Of a stretch of 25,977 bases of DNA, positions 370 through 18,191 are shown piece after piece. Source of the DNA: Parachlamydiaceae bacterium (GTDB lineage: Bacteria; Chlamydiota; Chlamydiia; Chlamydiales; Parachlamydiaceae); assembly GCA_013698165.1 (NCBI GenBank), contig JACCVN010000363.1, positions 1 to 25,977 on the forward strand, given 5' to 3'. Each line of letters begins with the position of its first letter. Position 1 is the stretch's first letter. The notes beneath the pieces are model-generated. The model was not told where the DNA came from, searched no databases, and saw nothing but the letters and a program-made list of their open reading frames with translations. A program made the translations under genes and the position numbers.

Positions 370-543
370 TTTGGGAGAGTTAGGTTTTTAGCAAATGTGG
401 TTTTATACTTAATAACTTTTTGGATTCTAAAGACACCACACAAAGTGGTAAAAGATGCCTGCAGTTGATCTTGCATTAAGGCATTGCACATGAATAGCTT
501 GTGAGTTCGATTATTGCTATCTCGCGGCATGCGCTTTAAGTGC

Positions 544-571
544 TTGCGCAAAAAATACTCAACGAGATAAT
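544..571 (+). promoter_or_regulatory. Possible sigma66/sigma70-type promoter for the tRNA pair
   Basis: TTGCGC (544-549), 16 nt, GATAAT (566-571), about 70 nt upstream of tRNA-Glu. Imperfect match. Confidence 0.3.
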
Positions 572-644
572 ATCTAATTTCTCTAGCGATAGAGATTAAA
601 GTTTCGCTGAAGTTAATGAAAAAACTCTTCAAGAACCTTTCTCT

Positions 645-719
645 GGCCCCATCGTCTAGTCTGGTCTAGGACACCGGATTTTCATTCCGATAACTGGGGT
701 TCGAATCCCCATGGGGTCA
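645..719 (+). tRNA. trnE: tRNA-Glu (anticodon TTC), CCA not encoded
   Basis: Acceptor stem GGCCCCA/TGGGGTC, anticodon loop TT-TTC-AT (681-683), T-arm TGGGG-TTCGAAT-CCCCA. Confidence 0.96.
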
Positions 720-724
720 TACAT

Positions 725-798
725 GAGTCTTTAGCTCAGCTGGTTAGAGCACCTCACTTTTAATGAGGGGGTCGATGGTTCGAATCCATCAAGACTCA
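725..798 (+). tRNA. trnK: tRNA-Lys (anticodon TTT), CCA not encoded
   Basis: Acceptor stem GAGTCTT/AAGACTC, D-arm GCTCAGCTGGTTAGAGC, anticodon arm CCTCA-CTTTTAA-TGAGG, T-loop GGTTCGAATCC. Confidence 0.97.
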
Positions 799-833
799 TT
801 TTCCTTCTTTTCAATTTATTGAATAAATTTTTT

Positions 834-869
834 AAATCTGCAGCTATAATTAGCTGCAGATTTTTTTTT
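834..869 (+). terminator. Rho-independent terminator of the tRNA pair
   Basis: Perfect 13-bp stem AAATCTGCAGCTA / TAGCTGCAGATTT with TAAT loop, running into T9 (861-869). It lies between the convergent tRNA and kinase genes. Confidence 0.9.
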
Positions 870-921
870 ACTGAATTTTCCTTCGCAATAAAAAAACTTC
901 TAACCATTTCTAGAGTGTTCT

Positions 922-3000
922 TTATACCATTGGGTATTCAGGAATCTCCAACCCAATTGTTGTAAGTCGAGAAAGGCACTCTTCAGAAGTTGGACGCTTT
1001 TGCCATTCTGAGTTAGTCATCTGATTGATCAGACTCATTAACCCTTCCATTTTAGTGCGATCTTCATCACTGAGATTGGTGTAGTAAGAAGAGATGAATT
1101 CCGATTGGTTCATAGGCCCTTTAAGAGTCGTTCCTCTAGAAGATGGATTAACTATGGGGTATAGCTCTTTAATATTAACTTGTGTTAAAAATAACCTCCA
1201 AGTGACACCTAAGGCATAGACATCTAGACTTGTATTAAATCCTGATACCTCATTGGTTTTTAGTGAATGGCGGCTCATTATAGCTGCATCCTTCTCATTG
1301 AGGAATCCTTTAGTGGTAATTTCATTAGTATTTACATTTGCTAGATGTGCCCCATCGAAATCTGCTATCCCATAACTAATGACCCCATCGTTATTTTTAG
1401 AACAAAAGATATTCGATGGTTTGATATCGTTATGAGCAATGCTTGTTTTTCCCCCTATAGTTGAATGTAAATGCCTTACTCCAAAGCAAGTTTGCGTCAC
1501 AAAATCAAAGCATTCTTTAGGAGATTTATGATTTCTTATGACCTTTATATTTGCATCTCCATGATTATATAAACTCAAAACAGAGAATTTCTTATCGTTA
1601 TCAAAATATTTTGTTCGTTTGACCAGTCCGGGTACATTCACTGGGGAGCCCTGTGGATTAATATACTGATCCTGCATTATCAAATGGCCCTTCCTTGCAA
1701 TAAATCCATCATTAAATGATTTCGGTACTTTTAAGGCTTTGGCCTTTCCAGCTATCGCGTTTCCATTTGCATCTACGGGGCTATAACGGTACACATTTGC
1801 CGTTCCTCCCTCTCCAAGCTTAAGGTCACGCCTATAGCATTTTGTAACTAGTTCGTTTTGTCGTTTTACTTTTTTAACAGTCAGCATTGACCCTTGAGAT
1901 GAATATTCTTCTCTGGCTATTTTATATTGGGAAATAGGTTTTTTGGGGAGCTGTACAAATTCCCGACAAACAAGAAGGTCCCTTAAAAAAGTCAATGGCA
2001 GTACTTTCTCTTTGATGCAGAGGCCTAGATCAACTATTTTTTTACTCTGACTTTTTATTTTAAGGTCAACTAATGGTGCCTTATTCATTTCATTGACATC
2101 GACTTGAGGTTTTTTCCCCGCTACATGGAAATCTAGTTTGGCCAAAACCTTCATAGTTTTGGAAACATCAACGCTAATTGATTTTTTGATTTCGACATTT
2201 TTTACTTCAACTTGGGGTTTATTATCCATCCCAATGAAATCGATTTGAGGAGATTTACCAATTATATGCGAATTAAATTTTGGTAAAGTGTATTTTTCGA
2301 TTACTTCCACTTCAACTAACTGTTTATTTTGTGTGTTTTTTACTTCAACTTGTGGTTCTTTAAGGATTTTTTCTATTTCAATAAAAACGTTTTTAGGAGC
2401 TAAAACTTGGGGGTTTGTACTTATTTTAGTGTTAGGAGTTCCAATAAATCTAGAATCCTCAACAGTTTTTAAGCTACTTTGAGCCTGATTGTTTTTTATA
2501 ATAGATAAAGGAGGCTGCAGATTAGGTGGTGCATTTTGAGCAACGTGTGGTAAAGCTGGGCAGTTGTGATGAAATAAATTAGTATAATCAATGGGTGGCT
2601 TAGATTGTACAAATTTCATTTGACTGGAAACTTTGGCAATTCGATCATAAAGCCATTCTTTTTGGGGGAGTGGGGTGCTGTGCTCCTTAGACCAAATTTT
2701 GGAAATTCTGTGATCAAAAGCTTTTAAAAGTAGGATATTTGATTTAAATCGAATTGATGTTGATTCAGAATTTTGATTATATCCTTCAATTACTTTGTCT
2801 AAATGGGTTGATCTGTAAAATCCAAAAGCTTTTCTTAGAAAAAGTTGAACGCAATTCATTTCTTTAAGGTCCCACCCTTCTTTGGCATTAAAGGAGATCA
2901 TCACCTTTTTTACAAAAAAGCTTTCCTTTTTTCCTAGATTTTGACAGTCGTTTAAAATCATAGTTTGTTTTTCACGAAGGCACGTAGTTAAACTTTGCAT
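922..3000 (-). CDS. Eukaryote-like Ser/Thr protein kinase (C-terminal domain, about aa 393-685) with a long low-complexity/repeat N-terminus; putative effector
   Basis: LGEGGTANVY glycine loop, ALK424, H523-N-D525-IKPSN catalytic loop, D547-F-D, LDVYALG (subdomain IX), KRPTSEECL (XI). GGGA upstream of the ATG. Confidence 0.85.
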   Translation of the reverse strand: MQSLTTCLREKQTMILNDCQNLGKKESFFVKKVMISFNAKEGWDLKEMNCVQLFLRKAFGFYRSTHLDKVIEGYNQNSESTSIRFKSNILLLKAFDHRISKIWSKEHSTPLPQKEWLYDRIAKVSSQMKFVQSKPPIDYTNLFHHNCPALPHVAQNAPPNLQPPLSIIKNNQAQSSLKTVEDSRFIGTPNTKISTNPQVLAPKNVFIEIEKILKEPQVEVKNTQNKQLVEVEVIEKYTLPKFNSHIIGKSPQIDFIGMDNKPQVEVKNVEIKKSISVDVSKTMKVLAKLDFHVAGKKPQVDVNEMNKAPLVDLKIKSQSKKIVDLGLCIKEKVLPLTFLRDLLVCREFVQLPKKPISQYKIAREEYSSQGSMLTVKKVKRQNELVTKCYRRDLKLGEGGTANVYRYSPVDANGNAIAGKAKALKVPKSFNDGFIARKGHLIMQDQYINPQGSPVNVPGLVKRTKYFDNDKKFSVLSLYNHGDANIKVIRNHKSPKECFDFVTQTCFGVRHLHSTIGGKTSIAHNDIKPSNIFCSKNNDGVISYGIADFDGAHLANVNTNEITTKGFLNEKDAAIMSRHSLKTNEVSGFNTSLDVYALGVTWRLFLTQVNIKELYPIVNPSSRGTTLKGPMNQSEFISSYYTNLSDEDRTKMEGLMSLINQMTNSEWQKRPTSEECLSRLTTIGLEIPEYPMV

Positions 3001-3248
3001 GAACAGTCCCTTTTTTAACAGTTTATTAAATATATATAATAATATTTTAACAATATAGAAATTAATTGTAAATAGTAAAGTTTAATAATGTAAAATAACT
3101 ATGTTTTGTTATTAATTAAATTCAAGTGTTTATACTTCTTATGGCTTGCTCGTAATCCTCCTCATTCTCGGTTTTTGACTAGATCGAATAGCAATTTTTT
3201 TTACATTAGTTGTTTCGCGATTGAGGAATATCTACATTTGCGGATTGT

Positions 3249-3315
3249 GATAAGAATAAATATTGACTTGAATTTAAATACTATTTTCAGAGAGAATTGC
3301 ATTGCAAATCAGGCC
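3249..3315. repeat. 67-bp exact direct repeat, copy 1
   Basis: GATAAGAATAAATATTGACTTGAATTTAAATACTATTTTCAGAGAGAATTGCATTGCAAATCAGGCC, identical to 5622-5688. Confidence 0.97.
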
Positions 3316-3343
3316 TAAGGGTTAGGTAAAGATAGCCCTTAAA

Positions 3344-5236
3344 TTAGAATAACTTTCTCCTCAGCTTGGTTTCATTTAAAAATGCATCAAATTGAGCAGC
3401 GGCTTTTATTTCATCGGCCCATAGCCCTGTATGTTCACCGGAAGATTCTATCAATTTATAAATCCGTTTATCTCCCATCTGTGGGTTAGGTAAATTCTTA
3501 ATAAGCTTATGAATTTGTTCTTCAGGAATAACAGTATCCTTTGCAGCTATTACGATGGCAACATTTCCTTGAACATTATGTAGGTTCTCGGAAGTGTTGT
3601 AGTTGACTATTGATGGCATAATGCCCCCGATCAGATTTCTAATAATCGGAAATCTTTCCCTTGCTACTTCACTATAATCAGAAAACGTCCTGTCAAGTAT
3701 TAAATTAGTGCCAGGTCTTCTACTTGCAAGATCTGATGCAGGCCCTCCACCTAAACAATGCCCATGGATGAGGAGATCTTCGTTTTTAACATGGTGCTTA
3801 ATTTGTAGATATTGGTACGCTGTGTCTAAATCGATTTTGGTCCGTGTCTCTGTTGGACTTCCCTCACTTTCACCAAACCCTCTAAAATCGACCATCATCA
3901 CATTTATTCCTCTAATTAGATATGAGGCGGCCAATCCTTTGTAAGCAGCATAACTCATACCTGATCCGGGTGAAATTAACGCCGTAGGTTGTGAAAAATT
4001 TCTGTCCAAATCTGCTTCACTAACTTGGGAGGGCCCTCTGGAAACATTGTCCAATTTATTCCCATTATCCCTTAAAGTTTTCTCAACTTTCGAAGCAAAG
4101 TCTGCATGTGGGGCTGGAATAGCTGCAAGAGGGGTAACTTTAGGAACTTTACCCAATAGAATCACATTACCCCTTACAGTTTTATCATCTTTCGAAATTA
4201 CGCCTGTAGTTTGAATACTGAGACCTAACCCCTTGAGATTAGCTAAAAATTCAGCAGCTTCTTCAATAGGTTGAAGATAAGTCCAACTTATTAACTCGTT
4301 ATTTGGAGACTTTATTTCAGTTCTTGTACAGAATTCAGGTTTAATTGTTAATGTTTGTTGGATAGTTCCATCATCATTTTCTTCTTCATTGACATTGCAA
4401 TACTTTTCAATAGCCATCTTAAAATCTTTTGCATTTAAAAACATCCCATCAAGTTTATCTCCACCGGGGGTTGATAAAGTGACAGGCTGTCCACCAACCG
4501 ATTGTAGTTGAAACTTTGCTTTTTGTATTCTTTCTTGATCGAAGCGCGCTTTTAGATATGAGGCTCCGGGATAAATTAGAGATTTTAATATTCTAACAGT
4601 TAAATCATTTATAATACTTGAGATTTTATTAGATTTATGAATTTGTTGTTCAGGAGGACCATATGCGTATGTAGCTTTAAATACCATTTTATTTATGGGG
4701 ATTCTAATTTCAAGTTGGTTGAGTTCTTTTTGGAGTAAAGATACTTTTGCTTGCGCATGTTCCTTAATACTTGGATTTTTCATTATTTCATTGGTAAGCT
4801 TACGAATCTCCTGGTTAAGAGCTTTAATTTTTTGTGTATCATTGCTTGTTACAGAGGAGGATTTAGGTAAGCGAGTTTTTGCAGAATTGACCTTTAAAAG
4901 TTTATTTAAATTGTTTTCAAAAATTTGATATTCAGCTTTTTTTATTTCTAAGGCTCTTTTCTGCTTTCTTATGCTTGGATCAATAATAGACCTAAGAAGA
5001 TAACTCACTGAATTTAATTTTTTAGACTCTGCATTTATAGACTCCTGAAATTCAGTTTTTTTATTTTTAAGTGCTTGAATATCTTTTGGTGAAATTGGTT
5101 GTCCAAATTTCATTGCAATTTTCATTTCAGTGATGAGGTTGATTATATAGGGATTTGTAAATCTGTTCTTTTTGGTGGGGCTATTAGTGTAATTTGAAAG
5201 TGCCGATGGCTCCTTATAATTATTGTTAACTTCCAT
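3344..5236 (-). CDS. Alpha/beta-hydrolase-fold protein (ABHD-like C-terminal domain) with a coiled-coil-like N-terminus; putative effector
   Basis: GINVMMVDFRGFGESEG, nucleophile elbow GHCLGG (C494), AAKD567TVI, GEH602TG. Lys/Glu/Leu-rich helical N-terminus. Confidence 0.88.
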   Translation of the reverse strand: MEVNNNYKEPSALSNYTNSPTKKNRFTNPYIINLITEMKIAMKFGQPISPKDIQALKNKKTEFQESINAESKKLNSVSYLLRSIIDPSIRKQKRALEIKKAEYQIFENNLNKLLKVNSAKTRLPKSSSVTSNDTQKIKALNQEIRKLTNEIMKNPSIKEHAQAKVSLLQKELNQLEIRIPINKMVFKATYAYGPPEQQIHKSNKISSIINDLTVRILKSLIYPGASYLKARFDQERIQKAKFQLQSVGGQPVTLSTPGGDKLDGMFLNAKDFKMAIEKYCNVNEEENDDGTIQQTLTIKPEFCTRTEIKSPNNELISWTYLQPIEEAAEFLANLKGLGLSIQTTGVISKDDKTVRGNVILLGKVPKVTPLAAIPAPHADFASKVEKTLRDNGNKLDNVSRGPSQVSEADLDRNFSQPTALISPGSGMSYAAYKGLAASYLIRGINVMMVDFRGFGESEGSPTETRTKIDLDTAYQYLQIKHHVKNEDLLIHGHCLGGGPASDLASRRPGTNLILDRTFSDYSEVARERFPIIRNLIGGIMPSIVNYNTSENLHNVQGNVAIVIAAKDTVIPEEQIHKLIKNLPNPQMGDKRIYKLIESSGEHTGLWADEIKAAAQFDAFLNETKLRRKLF

Positions 5237-5621
5237 TTAACCTCGATTGGTTGAGTAAATGTACTACGCAACTGCCTTCTTTAATTATAAGGATTTTTAT
5301 TATAAAAGTGTAAGTATTAAAACTTTAATTATAGATTTTAATGATTATTGAGCCCCTGGGTTTAAGTTGGTTAGAGATGAATAGAGTAAAAGAAAATAAT
5401 TATAAATGGACTAATGGGTTGTTAAAGGTAAATTCGACTTCTATGCCAATTATGTTACTAGGACACCTTATACCTATTTTTTTTGGTACCGAGTCATACA
5501 ATACTCTGCGCTTGGCCGAGCTTGTCCAATCCTTTTTTTAGTCTTTTTTAAGCACTTTATTTACAGACATCCTTTTGGTCCTATACCCTTTTTGTCGTTA
5601 TCCCCCAACTTTGCCACTAGC

Positions 5622-5688
5622 GATAAGAATAAATATTGACTTGAATTTAAATACTATTTTCAGAGAGAATTGCATTGCAAATCAGGCC
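5622..5688. repeat. 67-bp exact direct repeat, copy 2
   Basis: Identical to 3249-3315; offset 2373 bp. Confidence 0.97.
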
Positions 5689-5892
5689 AAGCTATGTGGC
5701 AGAAAGTCGAGCATTTGGCAGGATAAGTGAGCGAGGCTTTTTAGAAGTAACCTATCGGTTAGTTCTGAGTCTTGTGCACCTCACAGCTATATTCAGGGTT
5801 TACTGACTTCTATAGACCGATTTGTCGCTTCACAAATCAGCCTATAGAAGTTAGTAAGCGCTAAATCCATTAATATATTGGTTGGGAGACGA

Positions 5893-7008
5893 ATGGAAAA
5901 AGGAGTTGTATTTAAGAATATTGTAAAGAAGCGTGGAGATACAACAGCTCTTGCAGATGTCTCTTTTTCGATCAAGGGCGGAGAGTTTTTCTCTATTTTA
6001 GGCCCTAGTGGTTGTGGAAAGACGACCCTTTTACGCCTGCTGGCAGGTTTTGATACACCTGATTCAGGTCAGATTTTTCTAGATGGAGTCGATATTACCC
6101 ATCTGCCAGCTAATCGCCGGCCTATCAATACAGTTTTCCAGAATTACGCACTTTTTCCCCATCTGGACATTTGGGAGAATATCGCTTTTGGGCTGCGCAT
6201 CATGAATAAGAGCGAACGCGTTATCAAAGATGAAGTCGGAAAAATGCTTGAACTGATTCAAATGCCCGAACATGCGCATAAAATGCCTGATCAGATCAGT
6301 GGTGGACAAAAGCAAAGAGTGGCCATTGCGCGAGCTCTTGTGAATCATCCACAGGTATTATTGCTCGATGAACCTTTAGCGGCTTTAGATTTGAAGCTGC
6401 GTCAGAAAATGTTACTCGATTTGGACCTCATCCATGATGAAGTAGGCATTACCTTTATTTTTGTTACTCACGATCAATCTGAAGCAATGTCCCTTTCAGA
6501 TCGTATTGCCGTTTTGCATAGGGGACATTTGCAGCAGCTTGGAGCTCCCATGGAGATCTACGAAACTCCTAAAAATCACTTTGTGGCCGATTTTATCGGG
6601 GATACTAACTTTTTTGATGGAAGCATGGCAGAAAAGGTCCAAAACGATTATAGCCTGTTGACATTCGAAGGATTTCCTCCGGTCATTTGCTTTAATGATA
6701 AGCAGCTCGCCGTTGGTGATTTGGTGCATCTTAGCGTTCGGCCTGAAAAGATCCACATTTCCCGAGAAAAGCCTAATACACAATCCTTGCATAATTGTTT
6801 TGAAGGAGTTGTCGACCAAACCGTGTACAAGGGCGACCACACCGATTATATCGTTTTAGTGGCGAATAAGAAAATCTCTCTAACGCAACAGCATAGCCGC
6901 TTTCTATTGGATGAAACGCCAATCCGTTGGAAAGATAAAGTATGGATCTGGTGGCATCCTGATGATGGATATATTCTTGAAAGAGAAAGAGGCAGGGGCG
7001 TTAAGTGA
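5893..7008 (+). CDS. potA: Spermidine/putrescine ABC transporter ATPase
   Basis: GPSGCGKTT Walker A, HLPANRRPINTVFQNYALFPHL, ISGGQKQRVAIARAL, LLLDEPLAALD. ATG 5893 with GGGAGA upstream is preferred over the TTG at 5878. Confidence 0.95.
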   Translation: MEKGVVFKNIVKKRGDTTALADVSFSIKGGEFFSILGPSGCGKTTLLRLLAGFDTPDSGQIFLDGVDITHLPANRRPINTVFQNYALFPHLDIWENIAFGLRIMNKSERVIKDEVGKMLELIQMPEHAHKMPDQISGGQKQRVAIARALVNHPQVLLLDEPLAALDLKLRQKMLLDLDLIHDEVGITFIFVTHDQSEAMSLSDRIAVLHRGHLQQLGAPMEIYETPKNHFVADFIGDTNFFDGSMAEKVQNDYSLLTFEGFPPVICFNDKQLAVGDLVHLSVRPEKIHISREKPNTQSLHNCFEGVVDQTVYKGDHTDYIVLVANKKISLTQQHSRFLLDETPIRWKDKVWIWWHPDDGYILERERGRGVK

Positions 7009-7880
7009 GAGAACGTGGTATGAAATTAAAGGAATATTTGCTGACAGCGCCATCGTTCATTTGGCTGATATTATTCTTCGTGATCCCTTCGGTCATCATA
7101 TTTGCGTATGCTTTTAAGCCTTATGACATTTATGGTGCTGTGGTTAGTGGATGGACACTTAACACGATATGGGAGCTTTTAGATTTAAACCTGTTGGTCT
7201 TGTTGTGGCGGACCTTCTGGCTGAGTGCTTTGGCGACAATTATTTGCCTTTTAGTCGCTTTACCGATGGGATATCAATTAATGACAACGCCAAAAAAATG
7301 GCGCAATCTGTTGTTAATGATGATTATCATTCCTTTTTGGAGCAGCTTTTTGATCCGTATTTTTGCCTGGAAGGCATTGCTTCATCCGGAAGGATTGCTG
7401 CATCAATTGCTTGAATTTATGGGCATAATAGCTCCTGAGACCACCTTATTATACAATTCTTTGACAGTCCTTTTTGTCATGGTTTACAACTTCCTTCCTT
7501 TTGCAGTACTCCCGATTTTTGCGGCGGCATCTAAATTCGATTTTCACCTTCTTGAGGCAGCTATCGATCTCGGAGCAACGCAATTGCAAGCATTTATAAA
7601 GATCTTTATACCCGGAATTCGCAGGGGGCTGACTACGGCTGCAATCATGGTATTTATTCCAGCTGTAGGAACTTACGTTATTCCCGATTTGGTGGGGGGA
7701 ACGAATAGTGAGATGTTAGGAAATAAGATTGCACAGAAGACTTTTGTAGAACGCAACTTACCTCAGGCTAGTGCCCTTTCGGCCATGCTTATTGCAGCCA
7801 TTTTTATCCCGATGTGGTTGATAAACCGCTACTATGAAAAAAGCAAAAAGTTTGAGCTTGAGTCGAGGAATCGCGAATGA
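7005..7880 (+). CDS. potB: Polyamine ABC transporter permease
   Basis: IIPFWSSFLIRIFAW, VYNFLPFAVLPI, LLEAAIDLGA (EAA motif). 4-nt overlap with potA. Confidence 0.93.
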   Translation: MRERGMKLKEYLLTAPSFIWLILFFVIPSVIIFAYAFKPYDIYGAVVSGWTLNTIWELLDLNLLVLLWRTFWLSALATIICLLVALPMGYQLMTTPKKWRNLLLMMIIIPFWSSFLIRIFAWKALLHPEGLLHQLLEFMGIIAPETTLLYNSLTVLFVMVYNFLPFAVLPIFAAASKFDFHLLEAAIDLGATQLQAFIKIFIPGIRRGLTTAAIMVFIPAVGTYVIPDLVGGTNSEMLGNKIAQKTFVERNLPQASALSAMLIAAIFIPMWLINRYYEKSKKFELESRNRE

Positions 7881-8653
7881 AACGTAGCCGCATCTGTTTG
7901 ACGATTACGATCATCACGTTTATCTTCCTTTACCTTCCCATCTTCATGTTGATGATAAACTCCTTTAATGCGTCGCGTTTTGGGGGAGTTTGGGCAGGGT
8001 TTTCTTTAAAGTGGTATGAGCGCATGCTGCAAGAGAGCATCATGTGGGAGTCACTGCAAAATTCATTGATTGTGGCCATATCCTCGACGATCATTTCTAC
8101 GATTTTGGGCACTTTTGCCGCCTTTGCTCTTCATTTTTATCGATCGAAGACTCAGAAAGTGCATTATGCCTTGATTTATACACCGCTTGTCATTCCGGAT
8201 ATTTTGATGGGGATTAGCTTACTACTATTCTTTTTCGCCTTAAATATCAAATTAGGGTTGTTGACCATAACCATAGCACATACAACTTTTTGCGTCAGTT
8301 ATGTCACCATGGTAATGCTTTCAAAGCTTCAGCATTTTGACTTCTCTGTTGTAGAGGCAGCCCTTGATCTGGGAGCAAAGATGCCAGCGGTGATCAGACG
8401 CATTTTGCTGCCGCTGCTATCGCCGGGGATTTTTTCCGCTGCGCTACTGGCTTTTACATTATCCATAGACGACTTTGTGATCACATTTTTTATGGCAGGT
8501 GAGGGTACATCAACACTTCCGATTTATATTTATAGCATGGGAAAATTTGGAGCGACACCAATTATCAATGCACTTTCGACGGCTATTCTTTGCATCACAT
8601 TTCTTTTTGTGCTGTTGTTCCATACATTTTCTCGTGAGGAAGGCGAAATATGA
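7877..8653 (+). CDS. potC: Polyamine ABC transporter permease
   Basis: FLYLPIFMLMINSFNASR, EAALDLGA, FTLSIDDFVITFF. ATGA overlap with potB. Confidence 0.93.
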   Translation: MKRSRICLTITIITFIFLYLPIFMLMINSFNASRFGGVWAGFSLKWYERMLQESIMWESLQNSLIVAISSTIISTILGTFAAFALHFYRSKTQKVHYALIYTPLVIPDILMGISLLLFFFALNIKLGLLTITIAHTTFCVSYVTMVMLSKLQHFDFSVVEAALDLGAKMPAVIRRILLPLLSPGIFSAALLAFTLSIDDFVITFFMAGEGTSTLPIYIYSMGKFGATPIINALSTAILCITFLFVLLFHTFSREEGEI

Positions 8654-9693
8654 AATTTCCAAAAGCTATTGTAACTAGTGTGGCAATAATGATTCTTCCC
8701 CTCATTGCTTTGTTAATAGGGGGTTGTGGTACATCAAACAAGCAGAAGTTATATATTTATACTTGGAGCGAGATTTTTGATCCGGCTTTGATTGCGGAAT
8801 TTGAAACCAAGTTCGATTGCAAAGTTATTATTGATATTTTCGATACCAATGAATCGATGTATGCCAAACTGAAGCTAACTTCCGCAGGATATGATATTAT
8901 TTGTCCAAGCCATTACTTCGTGAGTATTCTGGCACAGCAGAAAATGATCCAAGCATTAGATTCGAAGCTTTTACCAGACCTCATGAACTTGGACCCTAAG
9001 TATTTTACTTTGACCGACCCGTTGTATGCGGTGCCTTACATAGTAAGCTTTTCAGGTATCGGTTATCGTCAGGATAAAATTAATGAGATTTCCCCTTCCT
9101 ATGGTGTTTTTGGGCGCGTTGATCTGCGCGGGCGGATGACTATGCTTAATGATAGCCGTGAAGCAATCGGCGCAGCCTTGAAATATTTAGGGTATAGCGT
9201 TAATTCCAGAGAACCCAAAGAAATTGAAAAAGCCGGCGATCTGCTGATACAATGGAAAAAAAACCTGGCGAAATTTGAAAGCGAGCAGTACAAAAGCGGC
9301 CTTTCAAGCGGTGAATTTTTAGTTGTCCAAGGGTATTCCACAGATATTTTACAGGTGCAATCCGAGAATAAAAGTGTGGTTTTTCTTTTTCCCAGTGAGG
9401 GAGTGATCACATCTATCGATTGCTTGTCTATTCCAGAAGGCGCCCAAAATACTGAGCTTGCCTATAAATTCATTAATTTTATGATAGGCACTGAAGTGGC
9501 AGCCCAAAATATCCGATATGCTGCTGCCCTTTCACCCGTTGCAAGCGCCTATCCATTGTTAGGTGAAGATATTCGTAACAATCCCATATACTTCCCTCCC
9601 AAAGACGTTATCGACAAGATGGAGCGGATTGAAGACCTTCAGGGTGACGTTCAGTATTATTATAAAACGTGGGACAGGGTAAAGGCTAGTTAA
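8650..9693 (+). CDS. potD: Polyamine ABC transporter substrate-binding lipoprotein
   Basis: Lipobox-like LLIGGC, LYIYTWSE, FDTNESMYAKL, YDIICPSHY, FPSEG, AYKFINF. ATGA overlap with potC. Confidence 0.92.
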   Translation: MKFPKAIVTSVAIMILPLIALLIGGCGTSNKQKLYIYTWSEIFDPALIAEFETKFDCKVIIDIFDTNESMYAKLKLTSAGYDIICPSHYFVSILAQQKMIQALDSKLLPDLMNLDPKYFTLTDPLYAVPYIVSFSGIGYRQDKINEISPSYGVFGRVDLRGRMTMLNDSREAIGAALKYLGYSVNSREPKEIEKAGDLLIQWKKNLAKFESEQYKSGLSSGEFLVVQGYSTDILQVQSENKSVVFLFPSEGVITSIDCLSIPEGAQNTELAYKFINFMIGTEVAAQNIRYAAALSPVASAYPLLGEDIRNNPIYFPPKDVIDKMERIEDLQGDVQYYYKTWDRVKAS

Positions 9694-10408: not shown

Positions 10409-11269
10409 TTGTTAAACCCATCGATTGGTGTTATCGTACCGACGCTTTGTGCAAGGCGACATTTGCATTTTTGCCTCGCGCCCTTCATAAAGTCACCTTT
10501 GCGTCCACGCATACTTGTGATTGATTCTTCCTCACAGGACGATACAGCAGAATACGCCAAGGAACTTGGAGCAGATGTGCTGATCGTCCCTGCAAAAGAA
10601 TTTAATCATGGAAGTACTCGTGAACTTGCCCGGCGGCATTTAAAAACAGATATCGTCGTTATGGTCACTCAGGATTGCTATCTTGAAAATTCACGTGTAC
10701 TCGAAATACTTGTTGCCCCTTTAATCGAAATGAAATCTTCGGTGGCTTATGCGCGTCAACGCCCTCATATAGGCGCTGGAGTTTTAGAATCCTTTCTTCG
10801 TGATTTTAATTATCCAGCGGAGAGCCATATCAGAAGCCTTGCAGACCTTAAGCAATATGGGAGTTACTCCTTTTTTTGTTCCAATTCTTGCGCAGCCTAC
10901 CTTAATAAGGCTTTAGATGAGATTGGTGGCTTTGAACACGTTTTGTTAGGTGAAGATACGGTGGCGGTGGCTAAGTTATTGCATAAAGGACATTCCATTG
11001 CCTACGTCGCTGAGGCTGTCGCTAGACATTCACATACATATACATTAAGAGAAGAATTTAAGCGCGCTTATGATACCGGTAAAGCGCGACGCGGATACCA
11101 TCATCTACTTGCTACGGGAGGACTTGATACCGTCCGTGGTAAAGCCTACGCTCTCGCTTTAACAAAAAAACTGTTTCGAGAGTGTCCTCAGTTGCTGCCT
11201 TATGCAGCACTCCAAACCACAGTCAAATGGCTCGGCTATAAGCTTGGGTGGAACGCTGAAAATTCGTAG
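10409..11269 (+). CDS. GT2 family glycosyltransferase, rhamnosyltransferase-like
   Basis: VIDSSSQDDT, FNHGSTR, VMVTQD, AYARQRP, FCSNSCAAY, LGED. TTG start. Confidence 0.85.
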   Translation: MLNPSIGVIVPTLCARRHLHFCLAPFIKSPLRPRILVIDSSSQDDTAEYAKELGADVLIVPAKEFNHGSTRELARRHLKTDIVVMVTQDCYLENSRVLEILVAPLIEMKSSVAYARQRPHIGAGVLESFLRDFNYPAESHIRSLADLKQYGSYSFFCSNSCAAYLNKALDEIGGFEHVLLGEDTVAVAKLLHKGHSIAYVAEAVARHSHTYTLREEFKRAYDTGKARRGYHHLLATGGLDTVRGKAYALALTKKLFRECPQLLPYAALQTTVKWLGYKLGWNAENS

Positions 11270-11331
11270 CTTGCCCTTCTGATGTCGAATAAATACTCAA
11301 TATCGCTTGAAATCGAAATTCTCTTCTTTGT

Positions 11332-16249: not shown

Positions 16250-16410
16250 TATCCTGCAGCGTCTCGCTGTAGGAGTGAGTGAAGCGTAAATGCTTTTCTT
16301 TGTGATTCTAGCACCTGCTGCGAGACACATTTCTGTCCTGAGGGATTCCTCACTTCCAACAATACGAGCTACCCGTGTTTTATTTGCTCCGGAGCGAGTA
16401 ACCAGGATAA
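16250..16410 (+). ncRNA. Candidate structured non-coding RNA, long closing hairpin (6S RNA-like)
   Basis: End-to-end pairing 16250-16256/16403-16409, 16263-16268/16393-16398 and 16272-16287/16375-16390 (16 consecutive pairs, 7 of them G-U on the + strand). Confidence 0.5.
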
Positions 16411-18191
16411 GCAAGAGTTTCTAATGCCTTATTAACCGCTTTAGAATAGTTGGAGTATTCATTTTGCAGGTCAAAAGGTGTTACATCATAGATGATATCT
16501 GGAGTGACACCTAAATTTTCCAGTGGGTTATTCCCTGTCCTTTGAGCAAAGGAAGCTGTGCATGAAAAAAGGCTCATCCCAAACAAATTAGGGTATGAGT
16601 ACATTTCGACATATCCACCTGCACCGCTTGTTCGGGTGCCAAAAAGAGTTGCTCTCTGATTGTCTTGTAGAATTGCAGGTAGAAAATCTGCACAGGAGAA
16701 ATCCAGACTATCGATAAGCATTAGTATCGGTCTGCTGTAGGTCGCAAATGGATGAGGTTTGGCTGCTGTAATACCATAGAGGTGATGTTGGTCAGTGATG
16801 TGATGGCCCGCATTCCATTGATCGATAACAAATTGAAAGTGCTTTATTGCTCCCGCGACGAAATCCATATCGACATTGTAGCCAGAGATAGAATTTCCAA
16901 AAGTTTCTTTTGCCGAGCTTTCATCATCGACATATGCCAATGCTTCCAAATAATTCAATGCTTCATGCACATCTTTTTGGGTGATTGTAAATGCGTGTGT
17001 CGGTAAGACTAATGGAGTCTTAGAGAGCATTGAAGCTATGGCGTAAGCAAAAAAAAGATCTCCCCCCGGATTACATACTTGATCGACCACTAGTGCGTCA
17101 GTAGACATTTCAAATTCTTTAATTAGATAGGCAAATTCTTTGGCATTGTGTTCATCTTGGACATCAAAGCTAGGAATGCGTACATAACCGATAGGTCTCT
17201 TCGTACTGGGATGTTCAAATATGTAAGCATTAAAAGTTGAAGGGTGTGAAGTTTTCCAGAGGATTTTCCCTAAGAGAGGAACATAGCTTTTAAAGTGGCC
17301 GATGGGGAAAAAATCATCGTCGATTATATCGTTGGTTTGCCCTCTGAGGCGGTTGATTTTTTTGTAAACATCTACAAAAGATTTGAAGTAGGGAGTTATC
17401 ATCGACTTATGAAAAACGGAATGAGGAGTGCTCTGTGCATCGCTTCCTGAGGAAATTAAGGCTTTATAATTGTCGGTAAATGGTGGAGAGATCTCTTCAT
17501 CACCGTAGAACCATTCCAAAGAGCCTTTTATTTGCCTTCCACGCCTTAGTGCTTGCAGGGGGACTTTTCCTAGTTGAGGGTTCTGACCATCAGCTCCAAT
17601 TCTCAAGGTTAATGCAATTTCTGCCAAGGCATTATCAGTGGAAGGCAATCCGCGGTTAAAGTGACGTGACCGAAGTTCATCGACCACTTCGCTGACGGGG
17701 CGATCGTTAAAGCTTATCAGTTCATCTCCAACTTTTAGATTCATTCCTCTTTCCCAGAGGAGTTTTTCATCGATCCATGAGACAAAGTAGCGTCCTTGGC
17801 TGCTTTTTACGCGGAAGGGAAGATAAGAGAAACTTGTCGAATGAAATACAGCTTTTACATGGTAATCATAGCAACTATACAAAAATTGCATTAGAATCTG
17901 TCGGCCATCATCTAAATTCATCGTATCGGCTTCCAGAACTTTACTTTTGGCTTTTGCGATTTGGTCATCCAGATCCCATCCAGTGAGTAGAAACTTCCAA
18001 TCTTTGGGTGCATATTTAATGCGGAAGGTATGCTTGATGCAATCAAGATTATCCAAGAGTTCTTGGGAGTATAAAGCTGACATACTTCTTGTATGTATGT
18101 CAGCTTTTTCAAATACTGGCATTTCACTCGCCAGCAACGGCAAAATCGATGCCGCTGCAAAAGTGGCGACTATACTTAACCAATATCTCAT
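16380..18191 (-). CDS. cpa: Chlamydial protease-like activity factor (CPAF, S41 family) with signal peptide
   Basis: N-terminal signal peptide, DYHV (catalytic His region), IGYVRIPSF, DQVCNPGG, DFSCADFLP (catalytic Ser), RTSGAGG, ENLGVTPD. Confidence 0.9.
   Translation of the reverse strand: MRYWLSIVATFAAASILPLLASEMPVFEKADIHTRSMSALYSQELLDNLDCIKHTFRIKYAPKDWKFLLTGWDLDDQIAKAKSKVLEADTMNLDDGRQILMQFLYSCYDYHVKAVFHSTSFSYLPFRVKSSQGRYFVSWIDEKLLWERGMNLKVGDELISFNDRPVSEVVDELRSRHFNRGLPSTDNALAEIALTLRIGADGQNPQLGKVPLQALRRGRQIKGSLEWFYGDEEISPPFTDNYKALISSGSDAQSTPHSVFHKSMITPYFKSFVDVYKKINRLRGQTNDIIDDDFFPIGHFKSYVPLLGKILWKTSHPSTFNAYIFEHPSTKRPIGYVRIPSFDVQDEHNAKEFAYLIKEFEMSTDALVVDQVCNPGGDLFFAYAIASMLSKTPLVLPTHAFTITQKDVHEALNYLEALAYVDDESSAKETFGNSISGYNVDMDFVAGAIKHFQFVIDQWNAGHHITDQHHLYGITAAKPHPFATYSRPILMLIDSLDFSCADFLPAILQDNQRATLFGTRTSGAGGYVEMYSYPNLFGMSLFSCTASFAQRTGNNPLENLGVTPDIIYDVTPFDLQNEYSNYSKAVNKALETLAYPGYSLRSK

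Follow-up and report, generated by a model that had tools for sequence, protein, structure and literature searches.

We analysed a stretch of 25,977 nucleotides (the window), which is the whole of contig JACCVN010000363.1 (C340), the longest contig of a 640-contig, 2.96-Mb metagenome-assembled genome (MAG) of a Parachlamydiaceae bacterium with a completeness of 89.8%. In this window two identical 67-bp direct repeats, at 3249-3315 and 5622-5688, bracket a single gene for an alpha/beta-hydrolase protein. We favour, with about even confidence, the reading that a 2306-bp single-gene unit was recently inserted here in one event without a recombinase, duplicating 67 bp of its target, and that the pair of 67-mers is the scar of this event. 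An insertion scar was one of three readings offered by the original prediction, which was made from the sequence alone, the others being a substrate for deletion or amplification of the gene and a regulatory module shared with a neighbouring kinase gene. Insertion is the best fitting of the three, with a repeat that is unique and ends abruptly, no recombinase and a single gene of low G+C content (GC) between the copies.

Structure and borders of the repeat pair

The two copies agree at all 67 positions and lie in direct orientation with 2373 bp from start to start, as determined by repeat search and string comparison. An exact 67-nt pair in a 26-kb window of the same composition is expected 3.5e-31 times by chance. 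Copy 1 (3249-3315) lies 28 bp past the hydrolase stop codon and 248 bp before the ATG of the kinase gene. For copy 2 (5622-5688) the distance to the hydrolase ATG is 385 bp, and that to the ATG of a potA-like gene is 204 bp. String comparison and the positions of the open reading frames (ORFs) thus bear out the predicted identity of the 67-mers, their coordinates and their distances of 28 bp and 385 bp from the hydrolase gene.

At the right border of both copies similarity ends at once after the 67-mer. At the left border a common TTTGC and a stretch of 7 bases, with differences between the copies at 5 of them, precede both 67-mers, and an ungapped alignment of the repeats reaches 79 nt at 94% identity (3237-3315 and 5610-5688). 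The resulting 12-nt left extensions occupy 3237-3248 and 5610-5621, and the last 9 nt of the second (5613-5621, GCCACTAGC) pair as a 9-bp inverted repeat with 5691-5700 (GCTATGTGGC), an arrangement that frames copy 2 only. The minus strand around copy 2 folds with z = -2.9, and 2 of 200 shuffles fold equally well; the fold of copy 1 is no better than shuffles (z = +0.9 and -0.3). Beyond the extensions the surroundings are unalike. Local alignments of the two left flanks, L1 (the kinase-side spacer, 3001-3248, 25% GC) and L2 (the hydrolase upstream region, 5237-5621, minus strand), and of the two right flanks, R1 and R2 (the potA-side spacer, 5689-5892), were no better than the shuffle range, in agreement with the unrelated flanks of the original prediction. 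The repeat search likewise found no terminal inverted repeats in the 67-mer, as had been predicted.

Uniqueness of the repeat

The 67-mer occurs twice in the 640-contig MAG and no third copy was found, so that within this 89.8% complete assembly it is not a widely dispersed repeat. Fragments of it are not enriched at the contig ends of the MAG, a DNA search for relatives in 40 related genomes gave no match, none of the metagenome, GTDB genome and viral contig collections searched contains a 22-nt core of it, and it has no match in Rfam. Open frames do cross the 67-mer, one of 22 codons on the plus strand and an ATG-started one on the minus strand; these have no homologues and were set aside as frames that AT-rich DNA is bound to contain by chance. 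A miniature inverted-repeat transposable element or other insertion sequence-derived element was rejected on the lack of terminal inverted repeats and the presence of two copies only.

The right border (GCCAAGCTA-GTG) resembles the end of a repetitive extragenic palindromic (REP) sequence. A nhmmer profile of the GTAG-type REP built from 33 genomic copies gave no match to 3150-3450 or 5500-5950 even at E<1000, and a REP origin of the border therefore has no support from the profile. Within the window the profile matches 64-373 and 11262-11290. The first of these falls in the stretch 1-380, where REP units of alternating orientation form a 186-bp tandem array, and the second is a weak match among the 53 that the profile finds in the genome at E<0.01.

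The genome was screened for direct repeats lying on one contig, with a minimum length of 40 bp and a minimum identity of 95%. The 67-mer pair was the sole isolated two-copy repeat bracketing a gene. A screen of exact repeats from 18 bp up yielded no further case among the candidates inspected, which were tandem or paralogous sequence. Two repeats considered as a second bracketing case were rejected, one on C235 as paralogous gene starts and one on C387 as a contig-end loop, and the other candidates were coding paralogues. On C235 (L043) two adjacent minus-strand genes open with the same 24 nt (248-271 and 3767-3790, encoding MIGPVSTT) followed by similar residues; the two tandem paralogues share a conserved N-terminus and match nothing in Pfam, one of 1163 residues and the other cut by the contig end. 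On C387 an exact 117-bp direct repeat (16357-16473 and 16802-16918) has its second copy ending at the contig end and is probably an assembly loop, and exact repeats at contig ends of this MAG accordingly call for caution.

The unit between the repeats

The putative insert (3316-5621, minus strand) is 2306 bp long and consists of a weak hairpin past the stop codon, the hydrolase gene (3344-5236, minus strand) and 385 bp of upstream DNA. It thus holds one complete gene with its own Shine-Dalgarno sequence (GAGG, 5 nt before the ATG) and private upstream DNA, L2, which has no homology to L1 and contains no pseudogene remnant; none was recognisable in the spacers in general. Pfam scans of the ORFs of the 26-kb contig found no integrase, transposase or other recombinase. 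The GC of the hydrolase gene is 35.3% as compared to 39.8% for the genome and 43.2% for potA.

The encoded protein has 630 residues, with the alpha/beta-hydrolase domain at the C-terminus (residues ~420-600) and a nucleophile elbow of the sequence GHCLG at 492-496, in which the nucleophile position is Cys494. Its N-terminal ~180 residues are rich in K, E and Q and have no counterpart in any homologue found; the homologues are 406-423 residues long (one of 527), with identities of up to 54%. Elsewhere in the MAG, C574:3766-4856 holds a decayed hydrolase paralogue, with 29-38% identity over two segments and two in-frame TGA stops.

The integrated arrangement in independent data

The public runs that hold the stretch are soil and sand metagenomes, available as Logan contigs built at k=31. 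Contig JAITZK010007745.1 of an independent NCBI assembly (3657 bp) corresponds to 473-4127 of the window at 100% identity and spans the junction from L1 through copy 1 to the end of the hydrolase gene. A contig of run X2 covers 3171-3594 without difference. Run X3, which belongs to another study, has a 151-nt unitig identical to 5608-5758, made up of 14 nt from L2 followed by the repeat and 70 nt from R2; all pieces from this run are exactly of read length. Data other than the MAG thus support the two junctions of the integrated form, and misassembly, which the original prediction had named as a danger, is a very improbable cause of them.

A proposed insertion that duplicated a long stretch of target

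We propose that the ancestral site had the order kinase gene, L1, a single 67-mer, R2 and potA, in a divergent spacer of 519 bp. The 2306-bp unit, comprising the hydrolase gene, its own upstream region of ~385 bp and a 28-bp tail, would have entered this spacer and left 67 bp of the target at the entry point on both sides, so that copy 1 would be the target copy on the kinase-side spacer and copy 2 that on the potA-side spacer. The repeats would need no function of their own. Because 67 of 67 positions agree in non-coding DNA the event was probably recent, and a gain seems a better description than a relic. As a by-product, RecA-dependent or slippage recombination between them could delete the hydrolase gene or amplify it.

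Insertion with long target duplication is known for restriction-modification gene units (Furuta, Abe and Kobayashi 2010, PMC2853133), and was described earlier by Nobusato et al. (2000) as far as the later paper relates it. Furuta et al. required repeats of more than 30 bp around an insert of less than 20 kb with no other mobile element, and the repeats of the restriction-modification cases are unique in their genomes, from 46 to more than 400 bp long, around inserts whose GC is often off the genome mean (PMC2853133). The present locus agrees with this description in each respect that can be checked here, having a genome-unique repeat of 67 bp, an insert of 2306 bp and no mobility genes. It is also alike in its location in a spacer and in the off-mean GC of the insert. 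It differs in cargo and host: the original description concerned restriction-modification genes, whereas here the cargo is a single effector-like alpha/beta-hydrolase gene and the host is an uncultured Parachlamydiaceae bacterium.

The surroundings of the hydrolase homologues are consistent with a gene that moves. The genes next to the homologues change from genus to genus among those examined, and are conserved only inside a single genus. The closest homologue, on a Logan contig (L045), is a 410-residue gene between a radical-SAM (MiaB-like) gene and rplM, and in this MAG the radical-SAM/rplM spacer is empty (C540:5940-6270, 331 bp).

A mechanism that could leave such a footprint is homology-facilitated illegitimate recombination, which reportedly takes place during the uptake of foreign DNA in naturally competent bacteria. 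It can add a foreign segment beside a homologous anchor and duplicate recipient sequence at the illegitimate joint. Such a process would explain one sharp border and one border of fading similarity, as observed here; its demonstration was in competent bacteria and not in chlamydiae.

Evidence against insertion

Several observations weigh against this proposal. Searches for relatives covered 40 related genomes, 73 genomes of the family, JGI metagenomes, GTDB genomes and 5.8 billion proteins, and in these collections there was no relative close enough and no empty site with one 67-mer was found. With no empty site in a relative, we infer rather than observe the direction of change, and the insertion scar of the original prediction falls to that extent short of proof. 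The best hydrolase homologue anywhere is the one at 54% identity that lacks the first ~180 residues; a homologue in the same GTDB family is PNK_0140 of Candidatus Protochlamydia naegleriophila, in keeping with a place of the MAG among environmental chlamydiae, and the JGI metagenomes contained no close relative. For the kinase the best homologue is 39% identical. Exact-protein look-ups returned one other assembly of the same organism only. In 12 related genomes the upstream side of potA carries no tRNA, kinase or hydrolase gene and differs in each, and as this region is not syntenic the ancestral state cannot be reconstructed from them.

Composition does not single out the unit, as the GC of the kinase gene (35.5%) is close to that of the hydrolase gene and low GC therefore marks the whole islet between the tRNA genes and potA. 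No direct repeats were found around the hydrolase homologues in five relatives, and the footprint does not recur in this gene family. Two details of the borders are also unexplained by simple duplication: the TTTGC found 7 nt left of both repeats, and the framing of copy 2, but not of copy 1, by a 9-bp inverted repeat. If the unit was inserted, this inverted repeat pairs the last bases of the insert with target sequence just past the duplicated stretch, which may point to a fold-back or a template switch or may be due to chance.

A possible shared regulatory module

The 67-mer could instead be a recently duplicated cis-regulatory module (a promoter, operator or upstream activating site) that places the kinase and hydrolase genes under joint control on the minus strand. 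We regard this third reading of the original prediction as rather unlikely. Both minus-strand effector-like genes do have a copy upstream, and the predicted sequence elements are present, with TTGCAA-N18-TAGTAT on the minus strand of the 67-mer and an 11-nt palindrome, TTGCATTGCAA; the 67-mer also contains two tandem TTGNN pentamer pairs ~32 nt apart. The predicted elements proved weak, however. The promoter-like pair agrees with 8 of the 12 sigma-70 consensus positions, whereas the scan had a threshold of 9, and its list of 17 sites does not include the pair. Better matches are found nearer the genes, two of 10/12 just before the kinase ATG (3094-3065 and 3072-3044, minus strand), in the spacer L1 that holds the best promoter-like sites of that gene, and one of 9/12 for the hydrolase gene (5425-5396), the best such site in L2. 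The genome contains 9 copies of the palindrome, TTGCA-N-TGCAA, as compared to ~8.8 expected from a third-order Markov model, and there is therefore no sign of a regulon.

The wider context of the two copies also argues against joint control. The spacers from the repeats to the start codons are unequal (248 vs 385 bp), nothing similar to the 67-mer was found upstream of the kinase-domain paralogues or elsewhere in the genome, and the kinase and hydrolase proteins were unrelated when compared. A regulatory function would moreover not demand identity at all 67 positions with sharp borders. Inspection by eye against the consensus sequences gave inadequate spacing or matches for sigma-54 (for which the GG-to-GC spacing is unfit), sigma-28, DnaA-box and integration host factor sites in the 67-mer. 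Since promoters in chlamydiae are hard to predict, a regulatory role may still be considered, with little weight.

A possible cassette, dynamic unit or artefact

The repeats might also be the attL and attR sites of a small cis-mobilisable cassette, whose recombinase would come from another locus of the genome or from a co-resident element, in the manner of cis-mobilisable elements (CIMEs), integrons or Xer modules. The locus shares with CIMEs and integrase-less att-flanked islets a single-gene unit between exact direct repeats and the lack of a recombinase of its own, and the islet adjoins tRNA genes. CIME repeats are the att sites of a known integrase family, usually in a tRNA gene or gene end. 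In contrast, the 67-mer is not derived from the tRNA genes at 644-799 and is not part of a tRNA gene or a gene end, no integrase accompanies it, there is no further copy of the site, and no relatives were found in the collections searched; its 67 bp of identity also far exceed the need of most att cores.

Resemblance to specific site types was limited. A match to the integron R' core, GTTAGGT, lies 8 nt right of copy 1 and CCCCAAC lies 12 nt left of copy 2, but these core-like heptamers are not symmetrically placed at the two copies and there is no attC-like hairpin, copy 1 folding like shuffles; an integron gene cassette was rejected on these grounds. Xer/dif-flanked modules (integrative mobile elements exploiting Xer, IMEX, and pdif modules) were rejected as well, there being no 28-bp dif-like site with two 11-nt arms and a centre of 6-8 nt. 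The best dif match has arms of 7/11 and 8/11, a 9-nt spacer and a poor XerD arm, in a comparison made by eye with the E. coli and B. subtilis dif sequences. Taken together we consider a cassette of this kind quite improbable.

Another reading is that the 2373-bp unit is in equilibrium in the population, looping out and re-entering or amplifying via the 67-bp repeats, so that cells differ in hydrolase copy number. A 672-nt contig of run X1 joins 2985-3248 to 5622-6029, following the path L1-repeat-R2, and if the unit were in such equilibrium this contig would be a real empty site. The locus would then provide copy-number phase variation of an effector gene, for a host-targeted Cys-type alpha/beta-hydrolase, in an obligate intracellular bacterium and with no dedicated recombinase. 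However, the contig is uninformative on excision because k=31 is shorter than the 67-nt repeat and no 31-mer touches both L1 and R2; it was rejected as evidence of an empty site, containing no 31-mer that is absent from the integrated form, and it neither backs nor rules out excision. Contig depths in run X1 are 5.0-6.4 in the interior of the unit and 5.9-6.8 in the flanks. The raised coverage over 3316-5621 for which the original prediction suggested looking did not appear, and the depths, which are a blunt measure, show no sign of amplification. Amplification via flanking repeats has been proposed for restriction-modification units (PMC2853133). The second reading of the original prediction, a substrate for deletion or amplification, thus stands as a plausible, generic consequence of a 67-bp direct repeat with a precedent in those units, but nothing shows it occurring, and we judge an actual equilibrium very unlikely.

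An assembly artefact, in which an uninterrupted kinase-potA spacer and a separate 2373-bp circle or a hydrolase gene placed elsewhere were merged through the common 67 bp, is the least probable of the explanations and very improbable: the MAG is a low-coverage (~6x) soil assembly in 640 contigs of which another one ends in the exact 117-bp loop-like repeat, any k below 67 gives the same de Bruijn graph for the integrated form and for an empty site plus circle, and the joined contig of run X1 follows the uninterrupted path, but the L2-repeat-R2 junction of the read-length X3 unitig is exclusive to the integrated form, the independent assembly has L1-repeat-R1 at 100% identity, and the X1 depths are alike in unit and flanks. 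The stretches uncovered in run X1 are limited to the repeat-proximal ends of the unit (3316-3416 and 5417-5621), as would be expected from tip clipping at a repeat node of double depth in ~6x data.

Neighbouring genes

The low-GC islet that holds the kinase and hydrolase genes is bounded on the left by genes for tRNA-Glu(UUC) and tRNA-Lys(UUU) (644-799, plus strand). The left neighbour of the unit, outside the repeats, is a gene for a eukaryotic-like Ser/Thr kinase of 692 residues (922-3000, minus strand) with a Pkinase domain at residues 390-677, in which HND and DFD replace HRD and DFG. The first ~130 residues of the kinase are a module common to other proteins of the genome (C419:3594-4001 and C39:542-754, 42-43% identity) and also found in other Parachlamydiaceae genera, including four tandem genes in genome G064.

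The right neighbour is a gene for a potA-like ABC ATPase (5893-7008, plus strand, probable ATG at 5893), the first of a potABCD-like operon that continues with potB-, potC- and potD-like genes (7005-9693, plus strand); the product of an exact copy of potC on L030 carries PF00528. In the spacer R2 a very stable hairpin at 5791-5866 lies directly before the ribosome-binding region of potA. It has 35-nt arms and a folding energy of -41 kcal/mol over 5780-5900, with z of -5.7 (plus strand) and -6.4 (minus strand), and is unique in the genome. Strain differences seen in run X2 affect the right arm of the hairpin: 5843 T>A, 5848 A>C and an added GT after 5859.

Implications for gene gain in environmental chlamydiae

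Environmental chlamydiae carry large, fast-changing sets of host-directed proteins and few classical mobile elements that could explain the gain and loss of single genes. Without an empty site the locus on its own is a single well-documented scar. The chances are roughly balanced that it would represent a further instance of a known but little-understood kind of gene gain. If the unit was indeed inserted, the locus would provide a fresh, base-exact case of gene gain that is free of a recombinase, with a long target duplication and an effector-like hydrolase as cargo, and the 67-bp repeats would mark a gene that is open to loss or multiplication by ordinary recombination.

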